Shown here in pieces: positions 8,721 through 59,384 of a stretch of 64,000 bases of DNA (within the stretch, counting starts at the first letter, position 1; every line of letters starts with the position of its first letter). Source of the DNA: TPA_inf: Saccharomyces (Eukaryota); assembly GCA_000146045.2 (NCBI GenBank), contig BK006942.2, positions 375,889-439,888 on the forward strand, given 5' to 3'. The position numbers and the translations under genes are program-made. The notes under the pieces are model-generated. The model had not been told where the DNA came from, did not search any database, and saw only the letters and a list, made by a program, of their open reading frames with translations.

Positions 8721-9458
8721 ATGGCTCTACCTCTGATAAAACCTAAGGAGTCTGAGGAAAGCCACCTCGCTCTTTTGTCCAAGATCCACGTGTCCAAAAA
8801 TTGGAAACTGCCTCCAAGGTTGCCCCATAGAGCAGCTCAGCGGAGGAAAAGAGTTCATCGACTTCACGAAGATTACGAAACTGAAGAAAATGATGAGGAG
8901 CTACAGAAGAAAAAACGGCAGAATAGAGACGCCCAAAGGGCCTACAGAGAACGCAAAAACAACAAGTTGCAAGTGCTGGAGGAAACCATAGAGTCACTGA
9001 GTAAGGTCGTTAAAAACTACGAAACGAAACTAAACCGCCTCCAAAATGAACTTCAAGCGAAAGAATCGGAAAATCATGCCCTTAAACAGAAATTGGAGAC
9101 CCTTACTCTGAAACAAGCCTCTGTGCCTGCTCAGGACCCTATCCTGCAGAATTTGATCGAGAATTTCAAACCAATGAAGGCGATACCTATTAAGTACAAT
9201 ACCGCTATCAAGCGCCACCAGCACTCGACAGAACTGCCTAGCTCTGTCAAATGCGGCTTTTGTAACGACAACACTACTTGCGTTTGTAAAGAACTGGAAA
9301 CAGATCACCGTAAAAGTGACGACGGTGTGGCCACAGAACAGAAGGATATGTCGATGCCACATGCAGAGTGCAATAATAAAGATAACCCCAATGGGCTCTG
9401 TAGTAATTGTACTAATATCGACAAATCATGTATCGACATCCGGTCCATCATCCACTGA
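8721..9458 (+). CDS. YAP5: bZIP (Yap family) iron-responsive transcription factor
   Basis: 245 aa. Has the Yap-type basic region RQNRDAQRAYRERKNNKLQVLEE and Cys-rich C-terminal motifs. Length and position match YIR018W. Confidence 0.85.
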   Translation: MALPLIKPKESEESHLALLSKIHVSKNWKLPPRLPHRAAQRRKRVHRLHEDYETEENDEELQKKKRQNRDAQRAYRERKNNKLQVLEETIESLSKVVKNYETKLNRLQNELQAKESENHALKQKLETLTLKQASVPAQDPILQNLIENFKPMKAIPIKYNTAIKRHQHSTELPSSVKCGFCNDNTTCVCKELETDHRKSDDGVATEQKDMSMPHAECNNKDNPNGLCSNCTNIDKSCIDIRSIIH

Positions 9459-9751
9459 AGAGAGAGAACTTCTTAATACTTATAAATACGTCATTGAACA
9501 GCTCAACTTTTGTAACGTCAAAAGAACGCACATGAAAGGAGTGACATTGCTTTTTTCTTTGCAAGTTTATTACTGTGGTTATGTGTAAAGAATTAGTTCA
9601 TGGACATTGGCCGCAGAGTGCAAAAGCGTTTTGGACACCCCGCCTTTGGTGTTCTCGCCGCCATATTTTGAGACGTTAGTTTCCGACGAATTGAGCTGAA
9701 GCGGTGGACATTATCTCAAGGTACCGCTTACTATGCCTATACATTCCTGCA

Positions 9752-9771
9752 ATTTTTTTTTTTTTTTTTTT
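9752..9771. repeat. Poly(dT) tract, about 20 nt
   Basis: Homopolymer seen directly in the sequence. Confidence 0.9.
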
Positions 9772-11255
9772 GATAAGTATTACTGGGTAATGGGAAGTAT
9801 AATCACTAGGCATATTATTTTTGACGCAGAGGAGTGGCAGCCTGTCTACTATGTAAATGTAATGGTAGAACCGTTATTATAACGTAAAATAGATCGTACA
9901 TAAGAAAAACTGGACGCAAACCATTTAAATCTAAATGCGAATATGCGTACTGATTATTAACATGATACCATAATTTAGATCTTTCCTTTTGAAAGTCGTG
10001 TCAAATTCTAGTATTGGCGGATGAGATCCTAATGTGCTAAACAATAGAGATAATGGGATCCCCGCAAATTTCATTTTTAAATTGCTTTCCTCTTCTGAGT
10101 TGAACACGAATTTTTGAGAATCTAGCTGTAGTTAGACGTTACGCAAAAGAAGCTTTGGCGCAAGCAAATCTCCTTCCATACTGGTCTCCTTTACGGCTGT
10201 ACGAACACTACCGTAGTGACAAACTGAAAAACGAGGATTTGGTGAGCAGTCTGGAACAGGTAGATGAATCATAAAGCGCAGCAACCATCCTCGAACTGAT
10301 GACAGTACGACTTTTCTCCAAAATAGATATAAAGAAAGGCTGGTTATTCGTGGAGAGTTCAGTCCTCCGTATCTAACCTTGATGAATTAAAACTCAGGCC
10401 AGAACAATCTCTTTAACAGACCTCCATACATACTCTCGGAGCTATATTTTAGTGCGATCAAACTGCGAATAGAATAAAGCAGACGCAAGAGGCAAATTAC
10501 AAACTCTTGCGCTTCCTTTTTAGCGAGCTTGTTAAAGTAGGGTCTGAACGAGAGGCTGTCACAATTGCGTTGCGTTATGCAAAGGATATAACACGGTGCT
10601 GAAGTTAAACTGTGAAACTATACAAGTGGAGGACCCTTTGAGTTTTCTGTAGATAAAAAGGAGAATGTTTCAGAAGAGCGTCAGAGATCTCGAATGACAG
10701 ATCGGTGGCTACCACGAAATCTTATAGGCGTTTCTCTGGGCTCCCTAGTTACGTATAGCGCTGACGTAGTTTAGAAGGGCGCGCGCATTTTTTCTATTGT
10801 TGCCTCTTTTCTCGCTAGCTGGCTTTTAGCATCATGTTCTGCGGATATTATTCTCCGCCCGGAAGGTTCGTGGAAGGCCTAGAATGAGATCTATCAATAA
10901 CGCTACGCAGATTTCTAATGTTACATGTCACGTCGATCTGACATATATCTCCGTCAGGTTCGATCCAGACTCTCTGCGCGCGTACCAAGAGCTTTTTGTT
11001 TCAATAGGAACGGAATTTCCTTTATTGAATGTGGCAACGAACTGCGGAGGGTTATTAGCTTCTTGACACTTTCTTCGTCCATTACGTAGACCTAACGTTG
11101 AAAAGGAGACCTCGAAGAAATTTTAACTCTTGGCACCTCAGAATAAACAAGGTCATCTAGTGCGATGGCAATGCTTCAAAGTAAATGGAGAATTTCGAAG
11201 GCTAGCGTCTCTAGATAAATCTCAGCCTAACCCTTTTACACGAAGTTTTCCCAAC

Positions 11256-11284
<29 letters not shown>
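11256..11284. repeat. Poly(dA) tract, about 29 nt. A (GAAAA)n microsatellite follows at about 11399..11425.
   Basis: Homopolymer seen directly; unusually long for yeast. Confidence 0.9.
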
Positions 11285-11286
<2 letters not shown>

Positions 11287-12598
11287 AGGGCGGTTGTCTT
11301 TGGCATATCGCGAAAATAATAGATCTTATCAAGGGGTTTTTAAGTCATCCTCTGATTATTGGAAGTCATAATCACGTTCAATGGTGGGAGGCCTTCGGAA
11401 AAGAAAAGAAAAGAAAAGAAAATTTTCTCAATCTGAAACAGTCTCTTGTTTACGTTACACTGGCAATTTTAACGGCGAGACTCATCTGAAAAAAGCTATT
11501 CGACTTAGTCCTGTGTTTTTCATTACAGATAATCCTGATCAACGGGTGTACGTTTTTCCATTTTAGGTCAGTATCCTCCCTCTGTGTTTCAAACTAAGTA
11601 TAAGCGCCCACCCTAATTCGCTCGTATCCTTGTGTCAACTTCTTTGCTGCTCTGCAGCTGTAAACAGTTTTTGCGATAAGCCTCACATATGTCAGTGCTG
11701 TAAATACCGGAAATAGAAAGTCACTGTGGTCTGTACCCTCATTTGATTTACGCGGTTAGAAAAGTGGAAACTCTTTCTTAACCGTGTAAATCAAGTATGT
11801 CATTTCAGGAAACTTCCTCAATTCTTGGCGTACTATATTGAGTTGCCAATGTATGAGAGTGGTCGATTTCAATCGGCAACATTCTATCTCGCAATTACGC
11901 AATAAAAATTGACATGGTATGTTATTTTCATCCTTCGGATTTTTCAAACCATTCTGTTATAAGAGATATGTACCATCAATCGCCGACAGCGATACCCTCT
12001 TTAACCTCTAGTAAGAAGGACCCGGCACTTATTGTAATACGTTTAGGGGAAGTAGGTAAATCTGGACCGGTAATACGGCATAACGATCCATTTCGGACAT
12101 CGGGGACATTTCTTTTTTTTCCTTTATTATTTTTTTTTTCTAATGTCCTTACGAATTTCAGGCTCTAACCTTATTTCTTATTAGGACGTGTACTCATTGC
12201 CATCGCAACAATAAAAATAAAACATTAATAAAAAATTAATTAGAGCCTGTAACATAGAGATCAACGCTACTGTAGCGTTAGAAGGACAGTGAGAGAGTGG
12301 CATGACAATTAAAGTTTCTTCCGATTACTTCATGTCATCTGCATTACAAAGGAAGGAAAGATGTTTCGAATTATTTCCCCTTTAAGGTATTTTTGATGTG
12401 AAATTTGACCCCATACTGTGAAAATCAACTGCTAAGAACTCTGTGATCTTCTAAGATAAAAAGGCGGGCCCCTTTTTTCTTCTATATCTATTTATTATCT
12501 AAATATGCTTACATAAGCAAAATATACCGGGGTAGTTAGTGCACGCGGGGAACTACCTCTTTCTTACCGGATCTTGCCGCATCCTTTTTTCTGTTCAT

Positions 12599-12714
12599 TC
12601 TCAGAAAAAAGAGGCTTTTTTTCGTGAATACAGTCCGAAGAGCACTAGAATTTCGGACCGAAATTAGTAATATCTTCTGTACGAAAAAGGAAGACCCCTT
12701 TTCGTACAGAAGCC
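12599..12714. repeat. Cluster of three perfect inverted repeats (palindromes)
   Basis: Palindrome 1: gaaaaaag-aggc-tttttttc. Palindrome 2: AATTTCGG-a-CCGAAATT, a 17-bp perfect palindrome. Palindrome 3: cttctgtacgaaaa-aggaagacccc-ttttcgtacagaag, 14-bp arms at 12674..12687 and 12699..12712. Confidence 0.8.
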
Positions 12715-13683
12715 TTGGTCAATCAGAACAGGCAACGTTGTTTTTTCTACTCCGGAATTTTCTGAGCGAAGACAATCGGCCCTGAAGAGAGGATCAATCG
12801 TGGAAATCTACATCGTCCTCAAGAATTTCTAACGAGACTTCATGTCAAAATTTAACTTTTTTAGCTTTTTTTTAAGGTTGGCCCGCCAAAATCGTAAGTC
12901 TCGGTGCTCTGTTTAGGAAATAAAGAAGAGAAACGTCACCTAAAAAGTTTAAATTGAAGATGTCGTTCTATCTCGCGAATCTTAAATGAAAGACAGAGTG
13001 GGTTGATGACACTAGCGGACTTGTCATTAAATAACCCATGATATCTAGGCACATTAAGGTTAGCGTGGGGGGACGCGAATAATATAAGCATTACTCCAGT
13101 AAACTCACATAGAAAGAAGGAAATATTCTTTGTTCAAAGAGCAAAGGTGCCTGTAAAGATCCTCTTATTCATCAAAGCCTGGTCGAAGATTATTAGTTGT
13201 GCCAAGGCAATATCAGGTTTATTAATCTTTTAGGAAAAATGTAAGGTTGTTACGTCTCTTTCCGTCTCGCGGAAAAACATTTTTACTCAAGCCGTCCGTG
13301 GGATGATTTTTGGTGGTTATCATTTTCCAAGACTCCAGACAAAAGAACGTGCAGGCGCTTGGCAAAAAGAAAAAAAAAAAAAGCGAGAGGGAAAAGTGGC
13401 GCGGTGCCAATACTACCGGTACTTGTTCTTGAATAAGCTATCAGATGGTCAAAATAGGGCTAGAAGAAAAATGGTAAAATAAAGTAAAAAAAGGTAAAAG
13501 ATAATTTTTGAAGAACTAAAAAATATGTAAATGAATATGTATTCTACGGGTAGTTTTCTGCCTTACAAAATTATGGCAGCGAAAACAGAATGGTGGAAGA
13601 AAGTAAAGAGGGTATCGAAATAATATCTTAATTTAAGAATGAAAACATCGTAATGAAGAAACGAACATGTTGGAATTGTATCA

Positions 13684-16600
13684 TTAGAATACAACTGGAA
13701 GAGCGAGTAGCAACCACATAAAGTTTCCAAGAACCTTGATATTAGCAGCACCTTGGTAAGTACTCGAGATAGAAGGAACAGAGTATGTAGCGACTGCAGA
13801 ACCAGAAGCAGATTGTAGTGGACCAGTTAGAGATGGAGATGTGACAACGGGAGCCACGCTAGAAGCAGAAGCTGTTGTAGCTAGTTGGGATGTAGTCTTG
13901 ATTGAAATAGGGTTGGTTGCTGTGGCCACAGTTTCGTAATTCTTGGCACCATTTGAACCTGGAATCAAAGTGGTTATGTAAGTGGTTGGGATGGACTTGG
14001 TTGTGTAACCAGTTGTTGTTTCGCCAGCGGAGTTAGTACCAACAGATGACTCAGTGGTAATAACTGTGGTTGGAATAGCCGTCGTGACAGGGGTGGTAGC
14101 CGAAGGTGCAGTGTTTTCGCCTGCGCTTGCAGAACTTACGATAGTCTTAGCAGAGCATACAGATGTAGTTTCACCGGCAGCGTTTGTAGCAGCAGAACAT
14201 TCAGTAGTGGTTATTGTAGTTGGTACGGCATTAGTGGCAGGAGTTACTGGTGCACTTGGAGCCAAAGTGGTTACATAGGTGGTTGGTACAGACTTTGTTG
14301 TGTAACCAGTTGTCGTCTTACCAGCGGAGTTAGTACCCGTAGAGGATTCAGTGGTAACAACGGTGGTTGTGACAGCTGTTGTAACAAGGGTGGTAGCTTC
14401 AGTAGTGTATTCGCCAGTACCAGTTGAACAAGGAACAGTGGTTGTGACAGTCTTTGGAGAGCATCCAGAGGTAGTTTCACCGGCAGAGTTTGTACCTGTA
14501 GAGCAAACCGTAGTAGTAATAGTGGTTGGGGTGAAATTGGTAACCGTAGTGACTGATGGAGTTGGAGCAATTGTGGTTAGGTAAGTGGTTGGAATGTTTT
14601 TGGTGACAAATGTAGTTGTAATTTCACCACCTGGTTTTGTACTAGTAGAATACTCAGTAGTAACGACGGTGGTTGAGACAACTGTAGTTACAGGTGTGGT
14701 AGGTGAAGTGGTTGTTGATTCCGAGGCGGTTTCGCTTGGACTGGTTGAACATGGAACAGTAGTTGTAATGGTCTTTGGAGAGCATCCAGAGGTAGTTTCA
14801 CCGGCAGAGTTTGTTCCTGTAGAGCAAACTGTAGTAGTAATAGTGGTTGTTGATGATGTAGTGACAGAAGTCGTAGTTGTAGTTGGAACAGTAGTTGTAA
14901 CGGTCTTTGGAGAGCATCCAGAGGTAGTTTCACCGGCAGAGTTTGTTCCTGTAGAGCAAACCGTAGTGGTAATAGTGGTTGTTGATGGTGTAGTGACAGA
15001 AGTCGTAGTTTTAGTTGGAACAATGGTAGTTTCGGTTGTAGAAGAAACAGAGGTTTCTGTTTGACTGCCAGGGTATTTGGATGATGATGGAGTGACAGTA
15101 GTGCCAGTAGAAAAGCTTTCAGTAGTAGAGCTGAATGGAATTGAAGATGGAGCGGAGGAAGTGATGTTGCTAGAGGAAGATGGGGTTGGTACTGGTGCTA
15201 CAGAGCTTTCAGTGGTGGAGCTGGATACTGGAGCAGAAGAGCTTTCAGTAGTAGAGCTTGATGGGGTTGGTACTGGAACAGAAGAGCTTTCAGTGCTAGA
15301 GCTGAATGGGGTTGAAGATGGAGCGGAGGAAGTGATGTTGCTAGAGGAAGATGGGGTTGGTACTGGTGCTACAGAGCTTTCAGTAGTAGAGCTTGATGGG
15401 GTTGGTACTGGAGCAGAAGAGCTTTCGGTAGTAGAGCTGGATGGAGTTGGCACTGGAGCAGAAGAGCTTTCAGTAGTAGAGCTGGATGGAGTTGGTACTG
15501 GAGCAGAAGAGCTTTCAGTGGTAGAGCTGGTTACTGGAGCAGAAGAGCTTTCAGTAGTAGAGCTGGATGGAGTTGGTACTGGAGCAGAAGAGCTTTCAGT
15601 AGTAGAGCTGGATGGAGTTGGTACTGGAGCAGAAGAGCTTTCAGTAGTAGAGCTGGATGGAGTTGGTACTGGAGCAGAAGAGCTTTCAGTGGTAGAGCTG
15701 GTTACTGGAGCAGAAGAGCTTTCAGTGGTAGAGCTGGTTACTGGAGCAGAAGAGCTTTCAGTAGTAGAGCTGGATGGAGTTGGTACTGGAGCAGAAGAGC
15801 TTTCAGTAGTAGAGCTGGATGGGGTTGGTACTGGAGCAGAAGAGCTTTCAGTAGTAGAGCTGGATGGAGTTGGTACTGGAGCAGAAGAGCTTTCAGTGGT
15901 AGAGCTGGTTACTGGAGCAGAAGAGCTTTCAGTAGTAGAGCTTGATGGGGTTGGAGCTGGAGCAGAAGAGCTTTCAGTAGTAGAGCTTGATGGAGTTGGT
16001 ACTGGAGCAGAAGAGCTTTCAGTAGTAGAGCTTGATGGAGTTGGCACTGGAGCAGAAGAGCTTTCAGTGGTGGAGCTGGTTACTGGAGTAGAAGAGCTTT
16101 CAGTAGTAGAGCTGGATGGAGTTGGTACTGGAGCAGAAGAGCTTTCAGTGGTAGAGCTGGTTACTGGAGCAGAAGAGCTTTCAGTGGTGGAGCTTGATGG
16201 GGTTGGAGCTGGAGCAGAAGAGCTTTCAGTAGTAGAGCTGGATGGAGTTGGTACTGGAGCAGAAGAGCTTTCAGTGGTAGAGCTGGTTACTGGAGCAGAA
16301 GAGCTTTCAGTAGTAGAGCTGGATGGAGTTGGTACTGGAGCAGAAGAGCTTTCAGTGGTAGAGCTGGTTACTGGAGCAGAAGAGCTTTCAGTAGTAGAGC
16401 TGGATGGAGTTGGTACTGGAGCAGAAGAGCTTTCAGTGGTAGAGCTGGTTACTGGAGCAGAAGAGCTTTCAGTGGTAGAGCTGGTTACTGGAGCAGAAGA
16501 GCTTTCAGTGGTAGAGCTGGTTACTGGAGCAGAAGAGCTTTCAGTGGTAGAGCTGGTTACTGGAGCAGAAGAGCTTTCAGTAGTAGAGCTGGATGGAGTT

Positions 16601-17787
16601 GGTACTGGAGCAGAAGAGCTTTCAGTGGTAGAGCTGGTTACTGGAGCAGAAGAGCTTTCAGTGGTAGAGCTGGTTACTGGAGCAGAAGAGCTTTCAGTAG
16701 TAGAGCTTGATGGGGTTGGTACTGGAGCAGAAGAGCTTTCAGTGGTAGAGCTGGTTACTGGAGCAGAAGAGCTTTCAGTAGTAGAGCTGGATGGAGTTGG
16801 TACTGGAGCAGAAGAACTTTCAGTAGTAGAGCTTGATGGGGTTGGTACTGGAGTAGTAGTCTTCTTAGTGCATGTCTTAGATGTGGTAGTTTTCTTCTTT
16901 GTACATGGAGTGGTGTCGTGATGAGGAGGTGTAGGCTTTTCCTTTGTGCATGAGGTAGTGGTTGGGGGTGTAGGCTTTTCCTTAGTGCATGAGGTAGTGG
17001 TTGGTGTAGCAGGAGCGGTGGTTGATGATGATGTAGATGACTCGGAAGTGCTAGATGTAGTGGTAGATGACTCGGAAGTGCTAGATGTAGTGGTAGATGA
17101 CTCGGAAGTGCTAGATGTAGTGGTAGATGACTCGGAAGTGCTAGATGTAGTGGTAGATGACTTCGTACCGCCACAATTATTGTCACAATCTATGTTCCAA
17201 TAGAAGCCTGGGAAATCCGTTTGAGAGTGGCCTTGATTGTCATAGTTGTTACAACCAGTAGACAAATCAAAAGATGTAGTTCCCCATTGCCAGGAGCTTG
17301 CATATTGAGCGGCACTACCTTGCAAATACTCGAATTGAATTTGGAAGTTAGGCATCCACACCTGACAGCTGTTGACATCTTGTGTGGCATAAACTTCAAA
17401 AGTGGCTGTGAAATCAGTTGGGTTGTCAATCAAATAGGTATTTTCGTTGTAACCGTATAGTTGGACGGTACCTTTTGGACCAGTGACACCAATGATTTTC
17501 AAAGACCATAGATACTTCAGGTCAATATTTTCTTTACCTTTGACATGAATAGTGATTTGGTATGTGTTGTCTTGAACCCAAGAAACGGAAGTCACATCCA
17601 AAGTATACTGCATGATATTTTGCTGGTCCATGTGCCAATTGAAGTCTAAGTTGGGACAGCCATTAACGATAGAATTACAGCTAGTTCCTTCGGAGGATCC
17701 TCTTGGAACTAGTGCAGTTGGAAAACCCAAAGCCGAGTTAAATAGAAGCGAAAGGACCAAATAAGCGAGTAGAAATGGTCTTTGCAT
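13684..17787 (-). CDS. FLO11: GPI-anchored cell-surface flocculin/adhesin (mucin-like), Flo11/Muc1
   Basis: 1367 aa, the exact S288C length. Has an N-terminal signal peptide and the Flo11 adhesion domain, a huge Ser/Thr-rich tandem-repeat middle region, and a C-terminal GPI signal (hydrophobic tail). Confidence 0.95.
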   Translation of the reverse strand: MQRPFLLAYLVLSLLFNSALGFPTALVPRGSSEGTSCNSIVNGCPNLDFNWHMDQQNIMQYTLDVTSVSWVQDNTYQITIHVKGKENIDLKYLWSLKIIGVTGPKGTVQLYGYNENTYLIDNPTDFTATFEVYATQDVNSCQVWMPNFQIQFEYLQGSAAQYASSWQWGTTSFDLSTGCNNYDNQGHSQTDFPGFYWNIDCDNNCGGTKSSTTTSSTSESSTTTSSTSESSTTTSSTSESSTTTSSTSESSTSSSTTAPATPTTTSCTKEKPTPPTTTSCTKEKPTPPHHDTTPCTKKKTTTSKTCTKKTTTPVPTPSSSTTESSSAPVPTPSSSTTESSSAPVTSSTTESSSAPVPTPSSSTTESSSAPVTSSTTESSSAPVTSSTTESSSAPVPTPSSSTTESSSAPVTSSTTESSSAPVTSSTTESSSAPVTSSTTESSSAPVTSSTTESSSAPVPTPSSSTTESSSAPVTSSTTESSSAPVPTPSSSTTESSSAPVTSSTTESSSAPVPTPSSSTTESSSAPAPTPSSSTTESSSAPVTSSTTESSSAPVPTPSSSTTESSSTPVTSSTTESSSAPVPTPSSSTTESSSAPVPTPSSSTTESSSAPAPTPSSSTTESSSAPVTSSTTESSSAPVPTPSSSTTESSSAPVPTPSSSTTESSSAPVPTPSSSTTESSSAPVTSSTTESSSAPVTSSTTESSSAPVPTPSSSTTESSSAPVPTPSSSTTESSSAPVPTPSSSTTESSSAPVTSSTTESSSAPVPTPSSSTTESSSAPVPTPSSSTTESSSAPVPTPSSSTTESSVAPVPTPSSSSNITSSAPSSTPFSSSTESSSVPVPTPSSSTTESSSAPVSSSTTESSVAPVPTPSSSSNITSSAPSSIPFSSTTESFSTGTTVTPSSSKYPGSQTETSVSSTTETTIVPTKTTTSVTTPSTTTITTTVCSTGTNSAGETTSGCSPKTVTTTVPTTTTTSVTTSSTTTITTTVCSTGTNSAGETTSGCSPKTITTTVPCSTSPSETASESTTTSPTTPVTTVVSTTVVTTEYSTSTKPGGEITTTFVTKNIPTTYLTTIAPTPSVTTVTNFTPTTITTTVCSTGTNSAGETTSGCSPKTVTTTVPCSTGTGEYTTEATTLVTTAVTTTVVTTESSTGTNSAGKTTTGYTTKSVPTTYVTTLAPSAPVTPATNAVPTTITTTECSAATNAAGETTSVCSAKTIVSSASAGENTAPSATTPVTTAIPTTVITTESSVGTNSAGETTTGYTTKSIPTTYITTLIPGSNGAKNYETVATATNPISIKTTSQLATTASASSVAPVVTSPSLTGPLQSASGSAVATYSVPSISSTYQGAANIKVLGNFMWLLLALPVVF
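15100..16860. repeat. FLO11 intragenic tandem repeats. The 36-nt unit encodes TSSTTESSSAPV and the 45-nt unit encodes PTPSSSTTESSSAPV.
   Basis: Dozens of near-identical units are visible on both the nucleotide and protein level. Additional repeat families lie at 14400..15010 (three copies of about 150 nt) and 17020..17165 (five 30-nt units). Confidence 0.95.
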
Positions 17788-17995
17788 AGTGTGCGTATAT
17801 GGATTTTTGAGGCCTACAAAAGTATATTTTAATTAGAACCACAACATGACGAGGGATAATAACTGATGAATAGGGTGCTTTTTATACGTTTATTTTAGGA
17901 AGCAAGAGATCCTTTTTATCAATTGGGAACCCTTCAACAATTTGTACTGGTAAGTCTATGAGTTATCCGTTCTTGAACTAGAAGAGAGCGCAGTA

Positions 17996-20900
17996 ACGTA
18001 AATGCTTGAACATATTTGTTAAGGTAAATAAAACTGCCCTAATTTTTTATTTAATTCGAACACGGACATTCCTCAGATAAGACAAGTCTAACAGTTAATT
18101 CAAAGTAGAAAGAGCTTAATTTCTCCGTAAAAGAACGAAGTATATTGCGATGATGCCTTGAATCCCAATTGGTAACTCTATGACATTTTTGTAAAGGTTA
18201 CCTCATCAGAAGAGAACGGACCTAAAAAGATGACCCACATTTCTCTAGAAACAATCGTACCCTAATAGTTGCTTTAAATTGCTCAGCGGTCAAGAAAACG
18301 TATCATAATGTTATTCTATTCTTGAGCAGGCACTTTTAGGGTTGGGCAATGTCCTCAAAGTAAATATTAGTAAACAAACGAATACCTCCAAATCCATTGA
18401 ATTGAAAATCCATTCCAAGCTCTGCGCTTCCAATTGTTAATCACACCACCGATAGGCAATAGAAGTTCTGTCCGTGAAGATACCGCAGAATGAGTTGTGC
18501 CCGTATTGTTGCACCTAATTACGGAATCCCAAGGTATGCGATGTCCCAGTACGACCGTTAAAAAGACAACATGAATGACTGATCTGTTTAAGAGTATAGG
18601 CAGAAATAAAAAAGTTTGTGCAATGCCTGACAAAAAAAAGCTAATTTTTCTTTTAAGAAAGAATGTCATTCTTTTACCGCAAAGTTAATTTCTGCCTACA
18701 ATCACCTTCTAAACGCTCGGACTGATTGCCTTGAGCAATCAGCAGTTCTTTGAAGCCACTGTCGCAACAAAGAAAAAGAAAAGGGAAGTCCATTCTTAGC
18801 CCCAAAGAAAAGGATGACAAAAAAAAGAAAAAAAGTTAACTCGTACCAGTAAAGCCTAATTTTGCAGTGATCGCTAGCCCCAGAGAAGGACTAAAGACAA
18901 AAAGGACCCACTCGATAGGAAAATAACGGCCGAAACTCTTTGGGCGACATTTTCTTGTTAAGAAAACAGAAGAAAAAAACCTTAATTTGAACTTTCCAGG
19001 CACACCCAAAAAGGATTATGCTTATGTAATGCCACATTCCGAGAAACTGAAAGGCAAAAAAGAAAAAGCCTTTTTTTTCCTGCCGCGAAAGTTTAATTTG
19101 CCTACCGGCGTTCCTATTGGAGTCAGGAAAAGATCACTAGGAATTACAGCTGTGAGAACATACTCTGGGGCTGGCGTAGGCACACAATCCGGTATTCCTA
19201 AAGTTTTGTGGTACAAAACTCCATACCTAAAACATAAAACAAATCTCACCCGTGGATCCTTTTATTCATAATACCCCGTCCTGCACGCCGTGGAACTGAG
19301 TCTAAGTTGACAAGGCTACGAATGAATTTTGGGAAATGCATACGAAGAGGACTGAAAAAGTAGCAGGTTTCATGTGGTGGAAATACCGATTAGCGCATTC
19401 ACATTCGTGTTAGGGTCCGTTTTCCCGCACAGCTTTCGAAATATGAAACAATGTCCGTCTGCGTCAGCAGCTCAGATAAGGAAAAAAGAGATGGTAAAAA
19501 ACATTCGAGAAAAACAAGTACTGCAGGTGCATGTCCTCAATGCATGCAAGTGACCGTTTTGGGGTGGTGAGAACCATCACTAATTAAACTTTTCCTATTT
19601 TTTGTCTTTACAATATTCATTAGTCTTCATTCGCATTGGGTGTTCTACAGAAATGCTGGGCAAATCTGGAGATGGGTTGATACGCTAGCGTTCCTACTTG
19701 TAAGGGAGCAAAGATGTTAGATTTTTCTGTTTTGGAATTTTAGCTTTCTGTCCACCTTAGGTGTATGGCTCGGCTCTCGATGAGAATAGGAAAGTATTCC
19801 GCACTAACCGATGGGGGGTTGTTCTTACCGTAAAACCACACTTGAAAGCTATACGTAGTTGGAACCCCAAAACGACGGTATGAAATGAGGGATACATTAG
19901 GGGACAAAAAGGACTAGTAATTTCTTTGAAATTTGTAATAATAATTCGAAAAGTTGAGCATCCTTAATCTGACATGGCACACAGATGAAAAGGTGTTGAA
20001 AGCACTGTAAAAGAGGTTAAGAAATATCCTCTTTTCAACGAGCTTCATTTTGAGTATAATATGTTTATATTTGTCGCTGGCCCTGAGATGCTCAACTGTA
20101 AGTAAAACATCGGATGTGTGGATAAAAAGAACATGGAAAACGAGTGCAGCAACGACTATATTTAAAATAGTATCATTCATAATTCGATAGATGGACTTTT
20201 CAGCTACTTGTAAACGGCGAAATTGTGTCTAAGTTGTGAATGAGCTTTTCATTTTCATTTGCGTACCGAAGTGGTAAAACTGACGACCTAAAGTACGATA
20301 TACGGAATAAAGCAAGTTCTAATACTCTCTGCAGTTTGACCAGTGCTACTTGGCGCTGTTCATTCCAATTAGCCGTAAATTTGTGAAATAGATCCCAAGA
20401 TAATCTCCGTTTTATTTGCTTCCAAAGAGGTTATCTTTTTAATAGTTGGCATTTTCTAGCTTCTTGGTTGCTATAAGGCATAGTTGAAGTGCAGTGAGAG
20501 GAAGAGGGGAACTCACGGAAAGAGACTCCTTATACTTTTGTCAACCGGTGTGTTCCAAAATTCGCTAGTTAAACGTTTTATTAGCAGCGGTCCCATTGAG
20601 CCAAAACCCCGCTGAGCGTTGCGACACAATCTGATCATACCACATAATCATTGCAGCGCCTACTTTTTAACTTCTAGCAGCCAAATTGTTATTCAGATTT
20701 AGTTGGCGGTACGACTCCTTACAGCAGTAAATTATTCGAATTAGTAACAAACGAGTGATTGGTATGTGGAGATAGGAAACGAAGACTGAGCAGAAGCACC
20801 CACGCTAAGTAATTGTATTCTTGAATTGGGAGCCTGAAGAATTATGATCAAGCTCAGCATCTTTCCGTAGCGTCTTCGAGAATTTGTCCTGTGAGCGGAA

Positions 20901-21194
20901 GGTTGAAAGTTATAAATGATGTCTTATTTTTTTGCATGATCTCCCCAGACCCAGATGTCATCTGTAAAGAATTTAGTAGGACAATTGAAGACGCTGTCTT
21001 CCAATTGATTCAGCGAAACCTTTTCTTAAGATCATTCATATTCTTGTCAAAACACAGATCAGCGTCATATTATTCTTGTCTCGACATTAGGCCGTAATTT
21101 CGTCGAAGAAAAATGATCTATGTCATTGTAAATATCTACAATTCCAGCTATTTACGATAATCACGTTAGAATCTTTTGAATGAATGTCTTTCGA
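17996..21194 (-). ncRNA. ICR1: ICR1 long ncRNA, transcribed through the FLO11 promoter toward FLO11 and interfering in cis. Coordinates are approximate.
   Basis: Established knowledge: a roughly 3.2 kb ncRNA initiating about 3.4 kb upstream of FLO11. It is placed by offset from the FLO11 ATG. It is not visible from sequence alone. Confidence 0.4.
20100..21100 (+). ncRNA. PWR1: PWR1 ncRNA, antisense to the 5' end of ICR1 and promoting FLO11 expression. Coordinates are approximate.
   Basis: Established knowledge: a roughly 1.2 kb transcript on the opposite strand in the distal FLO11 promoter. Placement is approximate. Confidence 0.3.
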
Positions 21195-21405
21195 TACTTT
21201 TCCACGCTTGAAAGTTCGCATTCTTTTGGCGTTTTGTATCCTTATTATTCCAAACTTTGATCCGTTTCAACAACGGAAAAGGGAAAAATGAAAAAGTGCT
21301 GGTAAGTGAAAAATTATGAAAACTCGCTAAACGGCGAAGTTTAGATGTGAGACAAGCAGCAATGGAAGTATAGGTTGGTATTGAATATCTGTGGTTACTC
21401 TAAAG

Positions 21406-22497
21406 ATGTCTCCGAAGAATATAACAAGGTCGGTGATCCCGGCTATAGATTTGTATTGCCGCAAAGCAAATTTTAAAACTCTAAAATCATTGTCGATGAT
21501 CCTAGGTAGTAAAAAAGAATGGTATGACACTAAAAAGGCGCCATTGAGAACCTTTTTGGTCTCTCGATGTGGCATTTTCGAGCAGTTGAGGGGTCGTCTC
21601 GTTGAAGATGGCAAAGTCAACTTGTTTAGTGTTTTCCTGACAAACGACTCATTTTCTTTTTGCAAGATGACCGTTGATGATAAGTTCAACACTAGCTTGG
21701 TCGATTGGCAAAAAATACCCTTTGACAGTACATTTGCAACTGACAGAAGACAGAATATCAGTTTACTACCTGTTGATACACTGTTTGCAACTGAAAAGAT
21801 CATATCGATTCTTGGTGTATCTCCTAATATGACGAATCTTGTTTCTATAGAAAGAGAGCGATCAGACCTGGTGGATTTTAATTGTAAACTGCAATCAAAC
21901 ATCCTAGAACACCTACTATACGCGAAATGCCAAGGAGTGTACGTAACTTCTACCAATGAAAAAGCTCGTTTGCTTGCAGCTGTCTGCAATCCTGAATTCA
22001 TTGACACCTTCTGGTGCGAATTGACTCCCATAAGAGTCTCATTAAAGGAAAACCCTTCCATTTCTGTACCTCGAGAATATCAGATGTACGATCCGGTGGT
22101 ACGTGCCACTATAAAGGAGGTTGTCACCAAGCGATTACTGCGATCCGCCTTCGATAATGACATCGACCCGCTAATGTGTCTTCATTTGGATAAAGGCTGG
22201 AAACTTAAATTCCCCATACTATCCTCGACAACGGGCCTAAACTTCTCCCTGAAGGATTGTCTTTCCCTGGACACAGGAAAAGATGCATCTGATATGACAG
22301 AGGTGTTTCTCGCTACTATGGAGTCGAGTAAAGTTCTTCGTACGTATAGCAACCTCGTTGACATTGTGATGAAGGACAATGGTAGGTTGGACTCAGGCGT
22401 CCTAAAGCAATTCAACGACTACGTTAAGCAAGAAAAGCTCAATCTACAACATTTTCAGGCCGGTTCCTCAAAGTTTCTCAAAGGCGCAAAGATATAA
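21406..22497 (+). CDS. MRS1: Mitochondrial group I intron splicing factor Mrs1 (RNase H-fold / cruciform-cutting-endonuclease-like)
   Basis: Starting at the second Met gives 363 aa, the length of Mrs1. Position fits between FLO11 and SEC11. Confidence 0.8.
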   Translation: MSPKNITRSVIPAIDLYCRKANFKTLKSLSMILGSKKEWYDTKKAPLRTFLVSRCGIFEQLRGRLVEDGKVNLFSVFLTNDSFSFCKMTVDDKFNTSLVDWQKIPFDSTFATDRRQNISLLPVDTLFATEKIISILGVSPNMTNLVSIERERSDLVDFNCKLQSNILEHLLYAKCQGVYVTSTNEKARLLAAVCNPEFIDTFWCELTPIRVSLKENPSISVPREYQMYDPVVRATIKEVVTKRLLRSAFDNDIDPLMCLHLDKGWKLKFPILSSTTGLNFSLKDCLSLDTGKDASDMTEVFLATMESSKVLRTYSNLVDIVMKDNGRLDSGVLKQFNDYVKQEKLNLQHFQAGSSKFLKGAKI

Positions 22498-22844
22498 TCC
22501 TCTTATATAGCATGTAAATAGAAAGTACGTAAAAAAAAGCTACTATTGACTTTATTCTCCGTGAGGGCGGTTCTTTCTGTAGCTGTTGGTTTTTTCCAGA
22601 TCTTATGTGACACACCTGCACAACAATGTCATTCTCTGTCAGCTGCAAGACTCCCAAGACCACGAAGCTGCTGGTATCTTCTATTTCAGAGAGCGCTGTT
22701 GCTCTTATTATTATTACCATACGTATACTTTTTTCCATTGGCAAAAGCGATTTCAAAAAAATAATCTCCAAGGAAATAAATGGTGCAGAAACAATATACT
22801 ACAGAAATATACCGGAAAGTAAACCCCAAGGGAGTTAGCACAAG

Positions 22845-23348
22845 ATGAATCTAAGATTTGAATTGCAGAAACTATTGAACGTTTGCTTTTTGTTTGCATC
22901 TGCTTACATGTTCTGGCAAGGCTTAGCCATTGCTACTAATAGCGCTTCTCCGATCGTGGTGGTGCTTTCAGGCTCCATGGAACCAGCTTTCCAAAGGGGT
23001 GATATCCTTTTCCTATGGAATAGAAATACTTTCAACCAAGTAGGTGATGTCGTGGTGTATGAGGTCGAAGGGAAACAAATCCCCATTGTGCATAGAGTTT
23101 TGAGGCAACATAACAATCACGCGGACAAGCAATTCCTCCTGACCAAAGGTGACAATAACGCCGGCAATGATATCTCACTATATGCTAATAAGAAAATTTA
23201 CTTGAACAAGTCAAAGGAGATTGTAGGGACCGTCAAGGGCTACTTTCCACAACTAGGGTACATTACGATTTGGATTAGCGAGAACAAATATGCCAAGTTT
23301 GCATTGTTAGGTATGTTGGGGTTGAGTGCTCTGCTGGGGGGCGAGTAG
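22845..23348 (+). CDS. SEC11: Signal peptidase complex catalytic subunit (18 kDa)
   Basis: 167 aa. Has an N-terminal TM segment and a conserved SGSMEP catalytic serine motif, characteristic of Sec11/SPC18. Confidence 0.9.
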
Positions 23349-23888
23349 TTCGCCAAGTTTTTTTGGAACGATGTTTACGTACTTTGTATTTGTGCTTATG
23401 GTCTTTAACTTGTTTAATTATATAACCATAACCATTCGGTCCACGCTGAAAACAAAATATTGTCTTAGGACACGCTTTGAGAATTATTGAAAAAGGAGCT
23501 CCCACAGTGATGTAGGCAATTCAACAGAGATGATTTGTGTCATTTTTTATAAGGTGATACCGTCGCTCATTAACTCGATATCTTGAAAAGGCATATGTGT
23601 CGGTAATTGAGACCGCTAGGTTTAACTTCTCGAATAAAAAATGGTCTAAGCTGCATAAGCATATAGAATTGTACAATCAGTGTATAGGTAGAGCAGAAGC
23701 AGTCCAAGATTCGAGCTAATAATACTCATATAATATCCATCGCGATGGGTATTATATGAAACATAACAATCGTACATGGTGATTGAAAATAATAGATGAT
23801 AAGAATCATTTTCAAATAATAGTGTAGATCTTAAAAACTCTTGGCCTGTTTAGACGAGCGGCAGAACGACAGGCAGCCATACTATCAA

Positions 23889-26801
23889 ATGGACCCTCAC
23901 CAATCACCAGCTGATAATGCCGCATCGCCTACGAAGAGCGTGAAGGCAACCACTAAAAATTCGTCCACGAATAATAATGTCAATAGCAACAACAGCAATA
24001 ATAACAGTAACCATGATATACTGAATTTTAATGATAACTATACTACCATTCTGCAACATTTGGCAAACGACCATCCTAATATACTGAGGGAGAAAGGAGG
24101 ATCACAACAACAACAGCATCAGCAGCAGCAACAACAGCAACAACAGCAGCAACAACAGCAGCAACAACAGAGCCTGGATACCCTTTTGCACCATTATCAA
24201 AGTTTACTCTCCAAGAGTGATAATGCAATAGCCTTTGATGACAATGTTAGTAACAGCGCAGATCATAATGGCAGTAATAGCAACAATAATAACAACAATA
24301 ATGACATATCTAGTCCCGGTAATCTGATGGGATCTTGCAATCAATGTAGATTAAAGAAAACAAAGTGCAACTATTTTCCCGACCTAGGCAACTGTCTCGA
24401 ATGTGAAACGTCAAGAACTAAATGCACCTTCAGTATTGCTCCAAATTATTTGAAAAGAACGTCCTCTGGGGCAAACAATAACATGCCAACCTCTTCAAAC
24501 TCCAAACGAATGAAAAATTTTGAAGACTATTCGAATCGCTTACCCAGTAGCATGCTCTATAGACATCAACAGCAGCAGCAACAGCAACAGCAGCAACAGC
24601 GTATACAATACCCCAGATCCTCTTTTTTCGTCGGTCCGGCCTCAGTTTTCGATTTGAACTTGACCAAGCATGTAAGACTAGATAATGTTGACCAAATACA
24701 GCTATCAAAAACTTTATCATTAAGAAAGGTGTCTCCTACCGCACAGTTTATTCTTCAGGACGATTTTGACACGACCCTTCATAGTAAGCAAGAATACGAA
24801 GTTGATTTGGTCGAAAATCTGGTACATCCGCACGGTCACCTTTTAGTAGAGATTTTCTTCAAATTGATTCATCCTTTTCTTCCAATTTTACACGAACGTG
24901 TATTTTTGGAAAAGTATTCTAGATCTTATAGAGAACTCACTGCGCCTTTACTGGCATCCATTTACTCACTGGCATTACAATATTGGGATTTTCATCCTGC
25001 ACTTTTGGGGTTCCCTAAACCCGATGTAACTGCTCAACTAAACAATATCGCATTGGAAACATTTTATGCTCGAGTTGGAAGGCCAAAATTGAGCATTATA
25101 CAAACAGGCCTTTTGATTTTGCAATGCCGTAGTGAATGTCATAACAACTGGGTCCTCTGCTCCAGCGTAGTGGCCCTTGCAGAGGAATTGGGGCTCGGGG
25201 TTGAATGTAATGATTGGAAACTTCCCAAATGGGAAAAAGATTTGAGAAAGAGATTAGCGTGGGCAGTTTGGTTGATGGATAAATGGTGTGCATTAAACGA
25301 AGGTAGACAATCCCATTTAATTTTAGGTAGGAACTGGATGATCAAGCTATTAAACTTTGATGATTTTCCTCTGAATTCGCCCACTATTTTAAATTCCTTG
25401 CAAAATGACCAGTCGGGGTCTTCACCCTCGTCATCAAATGATGTGAAAAACCATCAGATAGCATTTGGTAACTTGCCCATATTTAACATAAACCCCACTT
25501 TAGAAGATTTCAAGAATGGAACGCTTATGTTTCAACAAATGGTTTCCTTGAGTATAATTCTTGGGGAAATCATGGACACATTTTACACTCAGGGATCCAT
25601 GACAATAAACAAAAGCATTGAACAGGTATTGAAACTGGCAAAGCCGTTGCAACTGAAATTAAGAGAATGGTACCATTCCCTACCCAAGAATTTGTCAATG
25701 AGTTATGCCACGCCACAAAAATTGAACTCAAATTCAACTTTAACTCTAGCTTATTTTGCCACGGAAATTACGTTACATAGGAAAATTATCTGTGCCTTGA
25801 ATCCTCAAACTCCAAAGGAACTGGTTCAAGTATGCAGGACTGCTGCAAGAACCAGGCTTGTAGCAGCAATTGAATTTATAAGAGATCTAAAAAACGAACA
25901 TATTAATGCTTTTTGGTATAACTGCTCAACTGGAAATCTGATGCTAATTGGAACATTTGCTGCCCTGCTGTATGTGACTTCAGCTACGAAGGAAGAGGCT
26001 ATGATTTTCAGAGATTATGTTAGAAATTATACCTGGGTATTGAAGATAGGTTCCAAATACTTTGATAAACTATCGAATGCTTTGAATAATATGCATTTAC
26101 TATTTGCACAAATTCCTGGTCTTCTGACCGATGAACCGGTGGTCGTGAGCCCTAACTCTAACATCAATTCCGTTAACCCACAAAGGTCAGGTGTACAATC
26201 GCAAATCCCAATACAATTTAACGTGGGATCACCTGCCATGACCGAGCAAGGATCTCCTTTAAACCAGTGGAAGAATTTGCCCCAGGAAATCTTGCAACAA
26301 CTAAACTCCTTTCCCAACGGTACGACCAGTACAACAACGCCAGTAAACCCCACTTCCAGACAAACACAACTAGAATCGCAGGGAAGTCCAGCCATAAATA
26401 GTGCTAATAATAATAGCAACAACACGCCTTTACCATTTGCGCCAAATAAGTCTTCTAAAAAAACTTCACAATCTTCACCAAATGTTACGCCCTCTCATAT
26501 GAGCAGACACCCCCCCTCTAATACATCTTCACCAAGAGTCAATTCCAGCACAAATGTCAACTCTAATACACAAATGAATGCTTCTCCCTTGACCTCAATT
26601 AACGAAACCAGACAAGAGTCAGGTGACGCTGCAGATGAAAAAACAGCAGGAAGAGAAAGAACCGCCAACGAGGAATCATCAACGGAACTCAAGGACGATA
26701 ATCCAAACTCGAACCAGGAAACAAGCGCAACTGGTAACCAAACTATAAAAATGAATGATGATAAAAATGTAACAATTAACACAAGGGAAACCCCTCTGTA
26801 A
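23889..26801 (+). CDS. DAL81: Zn2Cys6 transcriptional activator Dal81/Uga35 (induction of allantoin, GABA, urea and amino-acid permease genes)
   Basis: 970 aa from the MDPHQSP start. Has a Zn(II)2Cys6 cluster CNQCRLKKTKCNYFPDLGNCLECETSRTKC, poly-Gln tracts and a fungal TF middle domain. Confidence 0.9.
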   Translation: MDPHQSPADNAASPTKSVKATTKNSSTNNNVNSNNSNNNSNHDILNFNDNYTTILQHLANDHPNILREKGGSQQQQHQQQQQQQQQQQQQQQQQSLDTLLHHYQSLLSKSDNAIAFDDNVSNSADHNGSNSNNNNNNNDISSPGNLMGSCNQCRLKKTKCNYFPDLGNCLECETSRTKCTFSIAPNYLKRTSSGANNNMPTSSNSKRMKNFEDYSNRLPSSMLYRHQQQQQQQQQQQRIQYPRSSFFVGPASVFDLNLTKHVRLDNVDQIQLSKTLSLRKVSPTAQFILQDDFDTTLHSKQEYEVDLVENLVHPHGHLLVEIFFKLIHPFLPILHERVFLEKYSRSYRELTAPLLASIYSLALQYWDFHPALLGFPKPDVTAQLNNIALETFYARVGRPKLSIIQTGLLILQCRSECHNNWVLCSSVVALAEELGLGVECNDWKLPKWEKDLRKRLAWAVWLMDKWCALNEGRQSHLILGRNWMIKLLNFDDFPLNSPTILNSLQNDQSGSSPSSSNDVKNHQIAFGNLPIFNINPTLEDFKNGTLMFQQMVSLSIILGEIMDTFYTQGSMTINKSIEQVLKLAKPLQLKLREWYHSLPKNLSMSYATPQKLNSNSTLTLAYFATEITLHRKIICALNPQTPKELVQVCRTAARTRLVAAIEFIRDLKNEHINAFWYNCSTGNLMLIGTFAALLYVTSATKEEAMIFRDYVRNYTWVLKIGSKYFDKLSNALNNMHLLFAQIPGLLTDEPVVVSPNSNINSVNPQRSGVQSQIPIQFNVGSPAMTEQGSPLNQWKNLPQEILQQLNSFPNGTTSTTTPVNPTSRQTQLESQGSPAINSANNNSNNTPLPFAPNKSSKKTSQSSPNVTPSHMSRHPPSNTSSPRVNSSTNVNSNTQMNASPLTSINETRQESGDAADEKTAGRERTANEESSTELKDDNPNSNQETSATGNQTIKMNDDKNVTINTRETPL

Positions 26802-48625: not shown

Positions 48626-48725
48626 AATGCTTCCTTGATTTACCTTTTCCCTCTCATTTTAGGTTGTTGTAAAAAATATCAACGATCGTTTTATATATAA
48701 GGATTCTGCCATAGTATTTCAACGT

Positions 48726-48870
48726 TATCCACTTCCCCTAAATTTTCACCATACTGGAGCGAGCGGGTACGAGGTGAAAATCATTAGTAAATGGCCGTAG
48801 CATGAAAAGTGCGATTGTCATAGTAACAAGGAGGGGCTTATCCTTGGCTATTGCGAGGCACCCCCTCTGT
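48726..48870. promoter_or_regulatory. GTT1 upstream stress elements: three STREs (CCCCT at 48735..48739, AGGGG at 48832..48836, CCCCT at 48862..48866) and a Yap1-type TTAGTAA at 48784..48790
   Basis: Exact motif matches within 250 bp of the GTT1 ATG. Confidence 0.5.
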
Positions 48871-58040: not shown

Positions 58041-58415
58041 ATGGTCAAATTAACTTCAATCGCTGCTGGTGTCGCCGCCATCGCTGCTGGTGTTGCCGCT
58101 GCCCCAGCCACTACCACTCTATCTCCATCTGACGAAAGAGTTAACTTGGTCGAATTGGGTGTTTACGTCTCCGATATCAGAGCTCATTTGGCCCAATACT
58201 ACTTGTTTCAAGCAGCTCATCCAAGTGAGACCTACCCAGTTGAAATTGCTGAAGCTGTTTTCAACTATGGTGACTTCACCACCATGTTGACTGGTATTCC
58301 AGCTGAACAAGTCACCAGAGTTATCACTGGTGTTCCATGGTACTCTACCAGATTGAGACCAGCTATCTCCAGTGCTCTATCTAAGGACGGTATTTACACT
58401 GCTATTCCAAAATAG
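58041..58415 (+). CDS. PAU15: Seripauperin (PAU/TIR family cell-wall mannoprotein)
   Basis: 124 aa. Has a signal peptide with repeated [13 protein letters not shown] and the conserved PAU core. Subtelomeric location. Confidence 0.85.
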
Positions 58416-59384
58416 AGACATGCCTTTACGAATGAGATTCCATAGACATTGAAAGTAACGAAAAAATGAAATAAAAAATGCTTTCAATATAAATACAGCT
58501 GATTACATATAAACATATATTAATATTATAAATTCATTTGCTTTCACGAACTACCGGCTGGGCGTCAATATAATAGGGAACGCATAGTTGCTCTTTTATC
58601 TTTCTCACAACTAGGGGTTTTTTTATGTGAGCTGTACGGAATAGGCCAGTTTTACAACAGGATTCGTAGATCAGAATCCGTTCAAGCTATTCACCTGTTA
58701 CAGCAGTAGAGTTGCTCTTGTCTTGACCCGTGAATATTAAATACTGTAGAACCAGAACGGATACTTGAATATATTCAACGATGGGAAAATAAAAAGACAT
58801 ATAAGAAAAATGTGCTAGTACGGTAAGGAGGATACTGAAAAGAAAAGGAAAATATAGTTTAAAATAGTAAAGATAACCCACTTTCGTTATGGGTTTAGTG
58901 AGGGTTGGTAACGAACCGTAGCGCGGTGTAGTATGCTGTGAATAATTGTACTTTAGCATAGTTAACATTACAATCTTTGTACGTTTATATAACAAATATG
59001 ATAGAGTATGAGAAAAATTAAATGATACATTTTGAGGTTAAGGTTGAAACTATTATATGGAAGAAAGGTGGAATATAGTTAGGGCCAAAATGACACTATA
59101 AATGACATGATGTGAGCCTTAGTAAGGTGAGAGCTACGCTTCCTGGTTTAAATCAAAACCGAGAGCCCAAAATATTATCGGTATCGACGTAACATTTCAA
59201 TGTCATTCAAGCTTAAAGGAGATCAGCGCAAATGCGTGAAGTCTTAGTCATTGTAAATGCGATTTTTCTTTGTTGAAGGTGAAGTCGGAAAATTCACATG
59301 ACTGCAAAAAAATCCTAGTCTACAGTATGGTAACCAAAAAATGCTATATATACATATGTCCTGCATGAAAGAGAGGGCGAGTTT

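Follow-up and report, generated by a model that had tools for sequence, protein, structure and literature searches.

FLO11 of Saccharomyces cerevisiae: a repeat-rich adhesin gene and its 3.6-kb promoter with a published non-coding RNA toggle

Sense non-coding RNAs (ncRNAs) that are transcribed across a downstream promoter and repress it in cis are known from SRG1-SER3, IRT1-IME1, and pHO-lncRNA, and ICR1, the sense ncRNA upstream of the adhesin gene FLO11, is like them in this respect (PMC8113380, PMC6097775). FLO11 differs from these systems in having an extra antisense ncRNA, PWR1, and thus a two-RNA toggle tied to Flo8 and Sfl1, and in its much longer promoter. The gene serves as a model of fast adhesion variation through intragenic tandem repeats, of a very large eukaryotic promoter that integrates mitogen-activated protein kinase (MAPK), protein kinase A, and other signals, and of paired cis-acting ncRNAs that give heritable on/off expression; all three are already established. 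Here we describe FLO11 in a 64-kb stretch of S. cerevisiae DNA (64,000 nucleotides, hereafter the window), where the gene and its promoter occupy positions 13684..21405. We cover the identity of the gene, its repeat anatomy and length variation, and the length, non-coding nature, and conservation pattern of its promoter. The locus, the repeats, the promoter, and the toggle are known; what we add is a promoter conservation map for six Saccharomyces species and the question it raises, namely, whether the ICR1/PWR1 pair is conserved beyond S. cerevisiae.

Described proteins of comparable build are Flo1, Flo5, Flo9, and Flo10, which, like Flo11, are modular cell-wall adhesins with a glycosylphosphatidylinositol (GPI) anchor and a length-variable Ser/Thr-rich repeat stalk (PMC8617999). 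In Flo11, however, a fibronectin-III-like Flo11 domain replaces the PA14 lectin domain, and the gene lies 46 kb from telomere repeats. The S. cerevisiae paralogue BSC1 has a Flo11 domain approximately 65-75% identical to the A domain in the window, but it encodes a short protein (~300-370 aa) without the long B-domain array and is found at a different locus. The length of Bsc1p itself varies among strains (303, 313, 332, 338, and 373 aa).

Identity and anatomy of the adhesin gene

We assign 13684..21405, with a probability of roughly 0.93, to S. cerevisiae FLO11 (YIR019C, MUC1) in its S288C-type allele, together with the long promoter and the toggle that published work describes there. The main elements are as follows.

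13684..17787, minus strand: FLO11 coding sequence (CDS), 1367 aa plus stop, with an ATG start (open reading frame [ORF] list and translation)
17788..21405, no strand assigned: FLO11-MRS1 intergenic region, the FLO11 promoter, 3618 bp between the FLO11 ATG and the MRS1 ATG
21406..22497, plus strand: MRS1, the divergent gene at the far end of the promoter, 363 aa (Pfam Ydc2/MRS1, PF09159, E=2.6e-47)

A Pfam scan of the FLO11 ORF matched the Flo11 domain (PF10182) at aa 43-193 over the full 151-position profile (E=1.3e-71), and residues 21-211 are 100% identical to PDB 4UYR ("flocculation protein FLO11", S. cerevisiae). This 1367-aa protein occurs without change on nine S. cerevisiae contigs at NCBI (0.2-1 Mb), one of which is 99.97% identical to the window across 14.1 kb. 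Compared with the S288C reference FLO11/MUC1 (YIR019C), the window has the same protein length, A domain, and locus-specific primer matches, and no difference was detected. The gene, promoter architecture, and repeat units are also those of the Sigma1278b and flor alleles; most flor strains, however, carry a 111-bp promoter deletion within 18700..19173 and longer repeat cores (PMC4182726), whereas the promoter in the window is undeleted. Every defining sequence-level feature of FLO11 that we tested was found, with the signal peptide and the GPI signal as putative hydrophobic segments; the ncRNAs and factor binding rest on published experiments. The parts of the gene, from the N-terminus to the C-terminus of the protein, are these.

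17725..17787, minus strand: putative N-terminal secretion signal, aa 1-21, MQRPFLLAYLVLSLLFNSALG (mean Kyte-Doolittle value 2.0, against -0.37 for the whole protein)
17209..17661, minus strand: Flo11 A (adhesion) domain, aa 43-193 (PF10182; solved structure 4UYR)
17033..17162, minus strand: proximal repeat, 30-nt unit in 4.3 copies that are 100% identical (SSTSESSTTT; Tandem Repeats Finder and protein motif positions)
16928..17004: 39-nt array in two copies (Tandem Repeats Finder)
15202..16833, minus strand: main B-domain tandem array, 38 SSTTESS-core units of 36 or 45 nt (core spacing count)
14752..15022, minus strand: C-terminal long repeat, 132-nt unit in 2.1 copies, containing CSTGTNSAGETTSGCSPKT (Tandem Repeats Finder; three occurrences of the motif in the protein)
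14368..14682, minus strand: amyloid-core sequences VVSTTV (14665..14682) and VTTAVT (14368..14385), found by motif search
13687..13728, minus strand: C-terminal hydrophobic tail GNFMWLLLALPVVF, presumed GPI-attachment signal (mean Kyte-Doolittle value 1.89 over the last 14 aa)

Thus, the gene has the N-terminal PF10182 A domain and the Ser/Thr-rich tandem-repeat B domain that define a Flo11-type adhesin; a PA14 lectin domain was not found, as the Pfam scan of the protein returned only the Flo11 domain. Residues 1-21 are nearly invariant among orthologues, and their role as a signal peptide follows the architecture of GPI cell-wall proteins, as do the GPI anchoring of Flo11 and the amyloid role of VVSTTV and VTTAVT (all from PMC8617999). 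In the main array, successive SSTTESS cores are 12 aa (36 nt) apart in 16 cases and 15 aa (45 nt) apart in 20, with a single 45-aa gap that holds degenerate units; Tandem Repeats Finder reports a period of 45 nt and 39.2 copies at 15226..16853. Serine and threonine account for 50% of all residues and for 62% of those in the main array. An earlier note on this DNA, made from its letters, had described a FLO11 of 1367 aa with more than 35 tandem 36/45-nt Ser/Thr-rich repeats, and both statements agree with the ORF, its identity to 4UYR, and the 38 cores counted. The product would be a secreted, GPI-anchored cell-wall adhesin with a signal peptide and a fibronectin-III-like A domain for homotypic adhesion; this domain would be followed by a long Ser/Thr-rich stalk encoded by the 36/45-nt repeats and then by a C-terminal region with the amyloid cores and the GPI signal.

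Near-identical tandem units of this kind would expand and contract through slippage or recombination, which would change the length of the stalk and, with it, adhesion and hydrophobicity. The length polymorphism that the earlier note expected from the repeats is indeed evident, both between species and between strains. We compared the window with S. mikatae, S. kudriavzevii, S. arboricola, S. uvarum, and S. eubayanus (six Saccharomyces species in all). Lengths were compared at orthologous loci reached via MRS1, since a protein search with the A domain returned chiefly incomplete sequences. S. eubayanus and S. arboricola have runs of N in the FLO11 repeats and were used for the promoter and the A domain only. 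The orthologous proteins of S. mikatae, S. uvarum, and S. kudriavzevii are longer than the 1367 aa here (1472, 1565, and 1938 aa, respectively), and their A domains are 91-93% identical to that in the window at the protein level. The S. mikatae array has the same mixed 12/15-aa spacing (15 and 18 copies), with the unit SSTTESSSTP where S. cerevisiae has SSTTESSSAP, and S. kudriavzevii and S. uvarum each have their own variants of the repeat unit. Such species-specific units are a signature of concerted evolution inside the arrays.

Among strains, Sigma1278b has nine repeats more than S288c (PMC2780560), and flor and wine strains have FLO11 core sizes of 2.0-4.8 kb that correlate with hydrophobicity and velum formation (PMC4182726, PMC8617999). 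In strain AEL (GCA_030035995.1), FLO11 is ~1.5 kb shorter through the array, with approximately eight core repeats; codon 351 is an in-frame stop, and a frameshift follows further on. This reflects either a genuine pseudogene or short allele of the strain or a long-read assembly error in the repeats. For the window, we reject an assembly artefact in the repeat array: the same allele is present on nine contigs, and the same repeat pattern is found in other species.

Another assembly, GCA_030034595.1 (CP125382.1), encodes an identical 1367-aa Flo11, yet differs through the repeats at many synonymous positions (97.6% identity). It also carries two insertions of 34 bp, located in the promoter and directly past the FLO11 stop codon. 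It may be a designed synthetic chromosome (loxPsym-sized inserts, recoded repeats) and not a natural strain.

Coding potential, conservation, and motifs of the promoter

The gap between FLO11 and MRS1 is exceptionally long for the window, where ORFs of at least 150 aa are separated by a median of 320 bp, as opposed to 3618 bp here. This length is retained across the six species (3387-3639 bp). The earlier note had spoken of an ORF-free region of about 3.6 kb; the length is confirmed, but ORFs of 100 aa (18367..18669, minus strand), 94 aa (18987..19271, plus strand), and 88 aa (19914..20180, minus strand) are present, none of them conserved. Could the gap conceal one or more unannotated protein-coding genes, such as one of these three ORFs? 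Besides the fact that the ORFs exist, the 100-aa ORF has also been gene-called in two S. cerevisiae assemblies. Against this, all three run into stops within 8-69 codons or lack a start codon in the five other species, gene callers called nothing in the gap in the S. mikatae, S. kudriavzevii, S. uvarum, S. arboricola, and S. eubayanus assemblies, and the conservation of the gap consists of short invariant islands without 3-nt periodicity. A hidden gene is therefore extremely improbable. Because its internal ORFs are broken in other species and no gene is called there, the gap is regarded as non-coding. No tRNA was found by ARAGORN in the whole window.

To score conservation, we aligned the promoter of the six species and of strain AEL and recorded, for each region, what fraction of the five other species matches the window on average and what share of the columns is invariant. 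Negative positions count upstream from the FLO11 start codon.

Whole promoter: mean identity 0.60, invariant columns 26%
MRS1-SEC11 intergenic region: mean identity 0.56, invariant columns 24%
SEC11-DAL81 intergenic region: mean identity 0.57, invariant columns 26%
MRS1 CDS: mean identity 0.75, invariant columns 51%
SEC11 CDS: mean identity 0.86, invariant columns 72%
FLO11 A-domain CDS: mean identity 0.86, invariant columns 70%
Promoter -1370..-1020 (18807..19157), a 350-bp block: mean identity 0.82, invariant columns 60%
Promoter -3000..-2000: mean identity 0.46, invariant columns 10%

The 350-bp block is the most conserved part of the promoter and exceeds the MRS1 coding sequence, whereas -3000..-2000 is the least conserved part and falls below neighbouring intergenic DNA. 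The block coincides with two published landmarks: the location of Flo8/Sfl1 binding at about -1200 (PMC8617999) and the amplicon of the PCR that detects the 111-bp flor-yeast deletion (PMC4182726), the primers of which map to 18700..18721 and 19150..19173. Inside the block, at about -1187..-1165, lies a TTC/GAA-rich element, which we infer to be the kind of sequence that a heat shock factor-like protein such as Sfl1 would bind. This block, about -1.0 to -1.4 kb, is the sequence-constrained core of the promoter, and published work assigns to it both the activator Flo8 and the repressor Sfl1, which compete there. Further conserved islands include an invariant Ste12-type pheromone response element (PRE) at -1657 and a 13-mer at -1250 that contains a Tec1 consensus sequence (TCS), and the 3.6-kb region as a whole is a non-coding control region that integrates many inputs. 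These islands, the TATA element, and the invariant runs of at least 10 nt are listed below; the PRE, the invariant 12-, 13-, 17-, and 18-nt runs, and the -1370..-1020 block are the candidate elements that the map yields.

17879..17886, minus strand: TATAAAAA at -99, the sole consensus TATA on the FLO11-sense strand (pattern scan)
18487..18492, minus strand: TCS (CATTCT) at -700, adjoining a published zinc-finger target, CTGCGGTATCTTC (18476..18488)
18837..18854 (-1067..-1050): invariant 18-nt run CTTTACTGGTACGAGTTA (six-species alignment)
18920..18931 (-1144..-1133): invariant 12-nt run GGCCGTTATTTT (six-species alignment)
19027..19039, minus strand: invariant 13-mer GAATGTGGCATTA, -1252..-1240, containing the sole fully conserved TCS (CATTCC, 19035..19040 on the plus strand)
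19401..19417, minus strand: invariant 17-mer GACCCTAACACGAATGT, -1630..-1614, containing a non-consensus TCS-like CATTCG, 36 nt from the PRE
19444..19450, plus strand: PRE (TGAAACA), candidate Ste12 site, -1657..-1663, a single copy in the motif scan

The TATA at -99 lies within a well-conserved stretch (-118..-69, mean identity 0.78) and likely represents the FLO11 core promoter, a putative functional assignment. The only other TATA in the promoter is on the plus strand at 20911, and it is of no help in placing the starts of the ncRNAs.

Tec1 and Ste12 are FLO11 activators that provide MAPK input (PMC8617999, PMC1939876). The PRE is where the earlier note had placed it, and the CATTCY motifs that it mentions are present, but their frequency and conservation tell a mixed story. 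On the one hand, TGAAACA occurs once in the promoter against 1.10 expected from dinucleotide-preserving shuffles (207 of 300 shuffles reach this count), and full conservation is seen for just one of the nine CATTCY sites, that at 19035. The TCS at -700, whose zinc-finger target was described as adjoining a Tec1 TCS (PMC1939876), is kept in only three species (the window, S. mikatae, and S. arboricola), and an inverted CATTCY pair at 18660/18667 is kept in four. A composite Ste12/Tec1 element, that is, a PRE beside a consensus TCS, was not found in the promoter: the nearest CATTCY (19035) is ~400 bp from the PRE, which has only non-consensus CATTCA/CATTCG nearby, 36-47 nt away. In the composite filamentation element of Madhani and Fink (1997), PRE and TCS are said to lie ~14 bp apart, and no such pair is present here. 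The PRE count, the incompletely conserved CATTCY sites, and the missing composite pair would fit PRE and TCS matches that arose by chance and have no regulatory role. On the other hand, TTGTTTCA, as the PRE reads on the strand of FLO11, does not vary among the six species, although the sequence on either side does, and of the 7-mers in the promoter only 1.6% (2.6% locally) are invariant; the TCS at 19035 lies inside an invariant 13-mer; CATTCY is approximately twofold enriched (9 against 4.2 expected; 7 of 300 shuffles reach 9); and the literature names both factors as activators. We consider it unlikely that these matches are all fortuitous, and conservation, not frequency, lends reasonable support to a role for the candidate PRE. 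The patterns for STRE (stress response element), Gcn4, Mig1, Nrg1, Rim101, Rme1, and TTTGC showed no enrichment over shuffles in the promoter, and counts of short degenerate consensus motifs are uninformative in such an AT-rich sequence.

The ncRNA pair and the strain background

According to published work, ICR1 (~3.2 kb) is co-directional with FLO11 and spans most of the promoter, and PWR1 (~1-1.2 kb) is antisense and overlaps the 5' part of ICR1. Transcription of PWR1 is promoted by Flo8 and interferes with ICR1, whereas Sfl1 prevents it and so leaves ICR1 to run and occlude the FLO11 promoter; Rpd3L and Hda1 contribute to the toggle (PMC4398931, PMC8113380, PMC6097775, PMC11012152). PMC8617999, PMC8113380, and PMC4398931 support the earlier note, in which ICR1 and the antisense PWR1, with Sfl1/Flo8 competition, are placed upstream of FLO11. 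For the DNA in the window, we infer both ncRNAs and transcription-factor occupancy from this published work: sense ICR1, transcribed across the promoter, would occlude it, and antisense PWR1, promoted by Flo8, would interfere with ICR1, which would result in variegated on/off expression of FLO11. We presume that ICR1 extends over approximately 17990..21200 on the minus strand, with both ends approximate; this placement fits 3.2 kb into the 3.6-kb gap and is guided by the annotation in the Saccharomyces Genome Database.

The published PWR1, ICR1, and flor-deletion primers map uniquely within 17788..21405, which makes this the locus where the toggle was described. One of them marks PWR1 directly.

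20883..20901, minus strand: site of the published PWR1-specific reverse transcription (RT) primer (PMC11827858), a unique exact match in the window

Because a minus-strand primer anneals to plus-strand RNA, this site marks DNA that is covered by the Watson-strand PWR1. It lies at about -3100, has 0.45 identity in its 50-bp bin, which is an ordinary intergenic level, and adjoins the least-conserved stretch of the promoter. Balancing selection has been reported at about -2800 (PMC6834051).

The RT primer given for ICR1 in the same paper (PMC11827858) deserves a separate remark. The primer, CCAGATTTGCCCAGCATTTC, matches the minus strand at 19650..19669 and thus reads in the direction of ICR1 and FLO11; in the form given, it would pair with plus-strand (Watson) RNA and not with ICR1. 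The orientation of the PWR1 primer is as expected. Either the paper lists the wrong primer of the pair, or its "ICR1" signal is an antisense transcript at about -1870.

Several observations weigh against our reading of the locus. Beyond the chance-level PRE count, the mostly unconserved TCS matches, and the missing composite element, an Rfam scan of 9000..24000 at the gathering threshold gave no match, to ICR1, PWR1, or anything else. The region -3000..-2000, next to the PWR1 primer site and toward the 5' part of ICR1, has only 0.46 identity and 10% invariant columns; since this is below the conservation of neighbouring intergenic DNA, the sequence gives no support for a conserved RNA product. 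Finally, FLO11 is not expressed in S288C, whose flo8 gene has a nonsense mutation, unless FLO8 is restored (PMC2780560); FLO8 is located outside the 64-kb window. Because this mutation keeps FLO11 off, the toggle is not exercised in the S288C background. Its mechanism was worked out mostly in Sigma1278b.

In an alternative explanation, the upstream region is long only because it holds many conventional upstream activating and repressing sequences (UAS/URS), and ICR1 and PWR1 are by-products of pervasive transcription with no causal part. Conservation in discrete islands is typical of factor binding, and the distal part near the PWR1 primer is less conserved than ordinary intergenic DNA (0.46 vs 0.56). 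In addition, at least four UAS and nine repression elements have been described over 2.8 kb (PMC1939876), and changes in PWR1 did not track the expression of ICR1 or FLO11 (PMC11827858). However, low conservation is also predicted by a mechanism that depends on the act of transcription, and hence it does not discriminate between the two. In W303, RNA polymerase II and R-loop signal extends across ~3 kb that match ICR1 (2025 bioRxiv preprint), and the passages of PMC8113380, PMC6097775, and PMC11012152 that summarise Bumgarner 2009 and 2012 assign strictly cis-acting, causal roles to both ncRNAs. Taken together, an explanation by conventional sites alone is quite improbable. The primary toggle paper reportedly found that terminator insertion in, or promoter deletion of, ICR1 or PWR1 altered FLO11 on/off switching in cis.

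With the ncRNA toggle as the preferred account, what might the very uneven constraint on the FLO11 promoter mean? A tentative and rather doubtful interpretation is that the toggle works solely by the act of transcription, with free turnover of its promoters, or that the ICR1/PWR1 pair is specific to S. cerevisiae and missing from the other Saccharomyces species. If the latter were true, the ~3.5-kb gap in the other species would be maintained for another reason.

The most conserved block also records the strain background. Strain AEL has a 13-bp insertion, AAGAGAATGTCGC, at -1178, which is a local duplication within this block (~18951 in the window, -1164) and is absent from the window and from the five other species; its absence places the window in the S288C-type state. 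The same 13-bp string has been reported as an insertion "at -1976" in Sigma1278b (PMC2780560). Since the sole AATGTCGC in the promoter sits at -1164, about -1176 may have been meant.

Chromosomal setting

Beyond MRS1 lies a 167-aa signal-peptidase ORF (SEC11), after which the downstream gene order matches as well. MRS1 orthologues were found in the five other Saccharomyces species, where the order of MRS1, SEC11, and the following genes is also kept. By the gene order of S. cerevisiae, we take the locus to be on the right arm of chromosome IX. The window ends in TG1-3 telomere repeats (63900..64000), which puts 46.2 kb between the start codon of FLO11 and the end of the chromosome.

An antisense ATG ORF of 244 aa (21327..22061, minus strand) overlaps the start of MRS1 and reaches into the FLO11-MRS1 gap. 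It has a gene call in one assembly (GCA_030034595.1) and no Pfam match on record, and it is probably spurious.

On the other side of FLO11, an ORF-poor stretch of 4225 bp (9459..13683) separates its stop codon from a gene for a 245-aa bZIP (basic leucine zipper) protein (8721..9458). The longest ATG ORF in this stretch has 84 aa, neither Rfam nor the tRNA scan gave a match there, and the other Saccharomyces species align in patches only, at ~68-72% identity. With ORF-poor stretches on both sides, FLO11 stands alone in a domain of ~12 kb. Nearer the telomere, two further gaps without an ORF of at least 150 aa are present, at 48626..54609 (5984 bp) and 56224..59384 (3161 bp).

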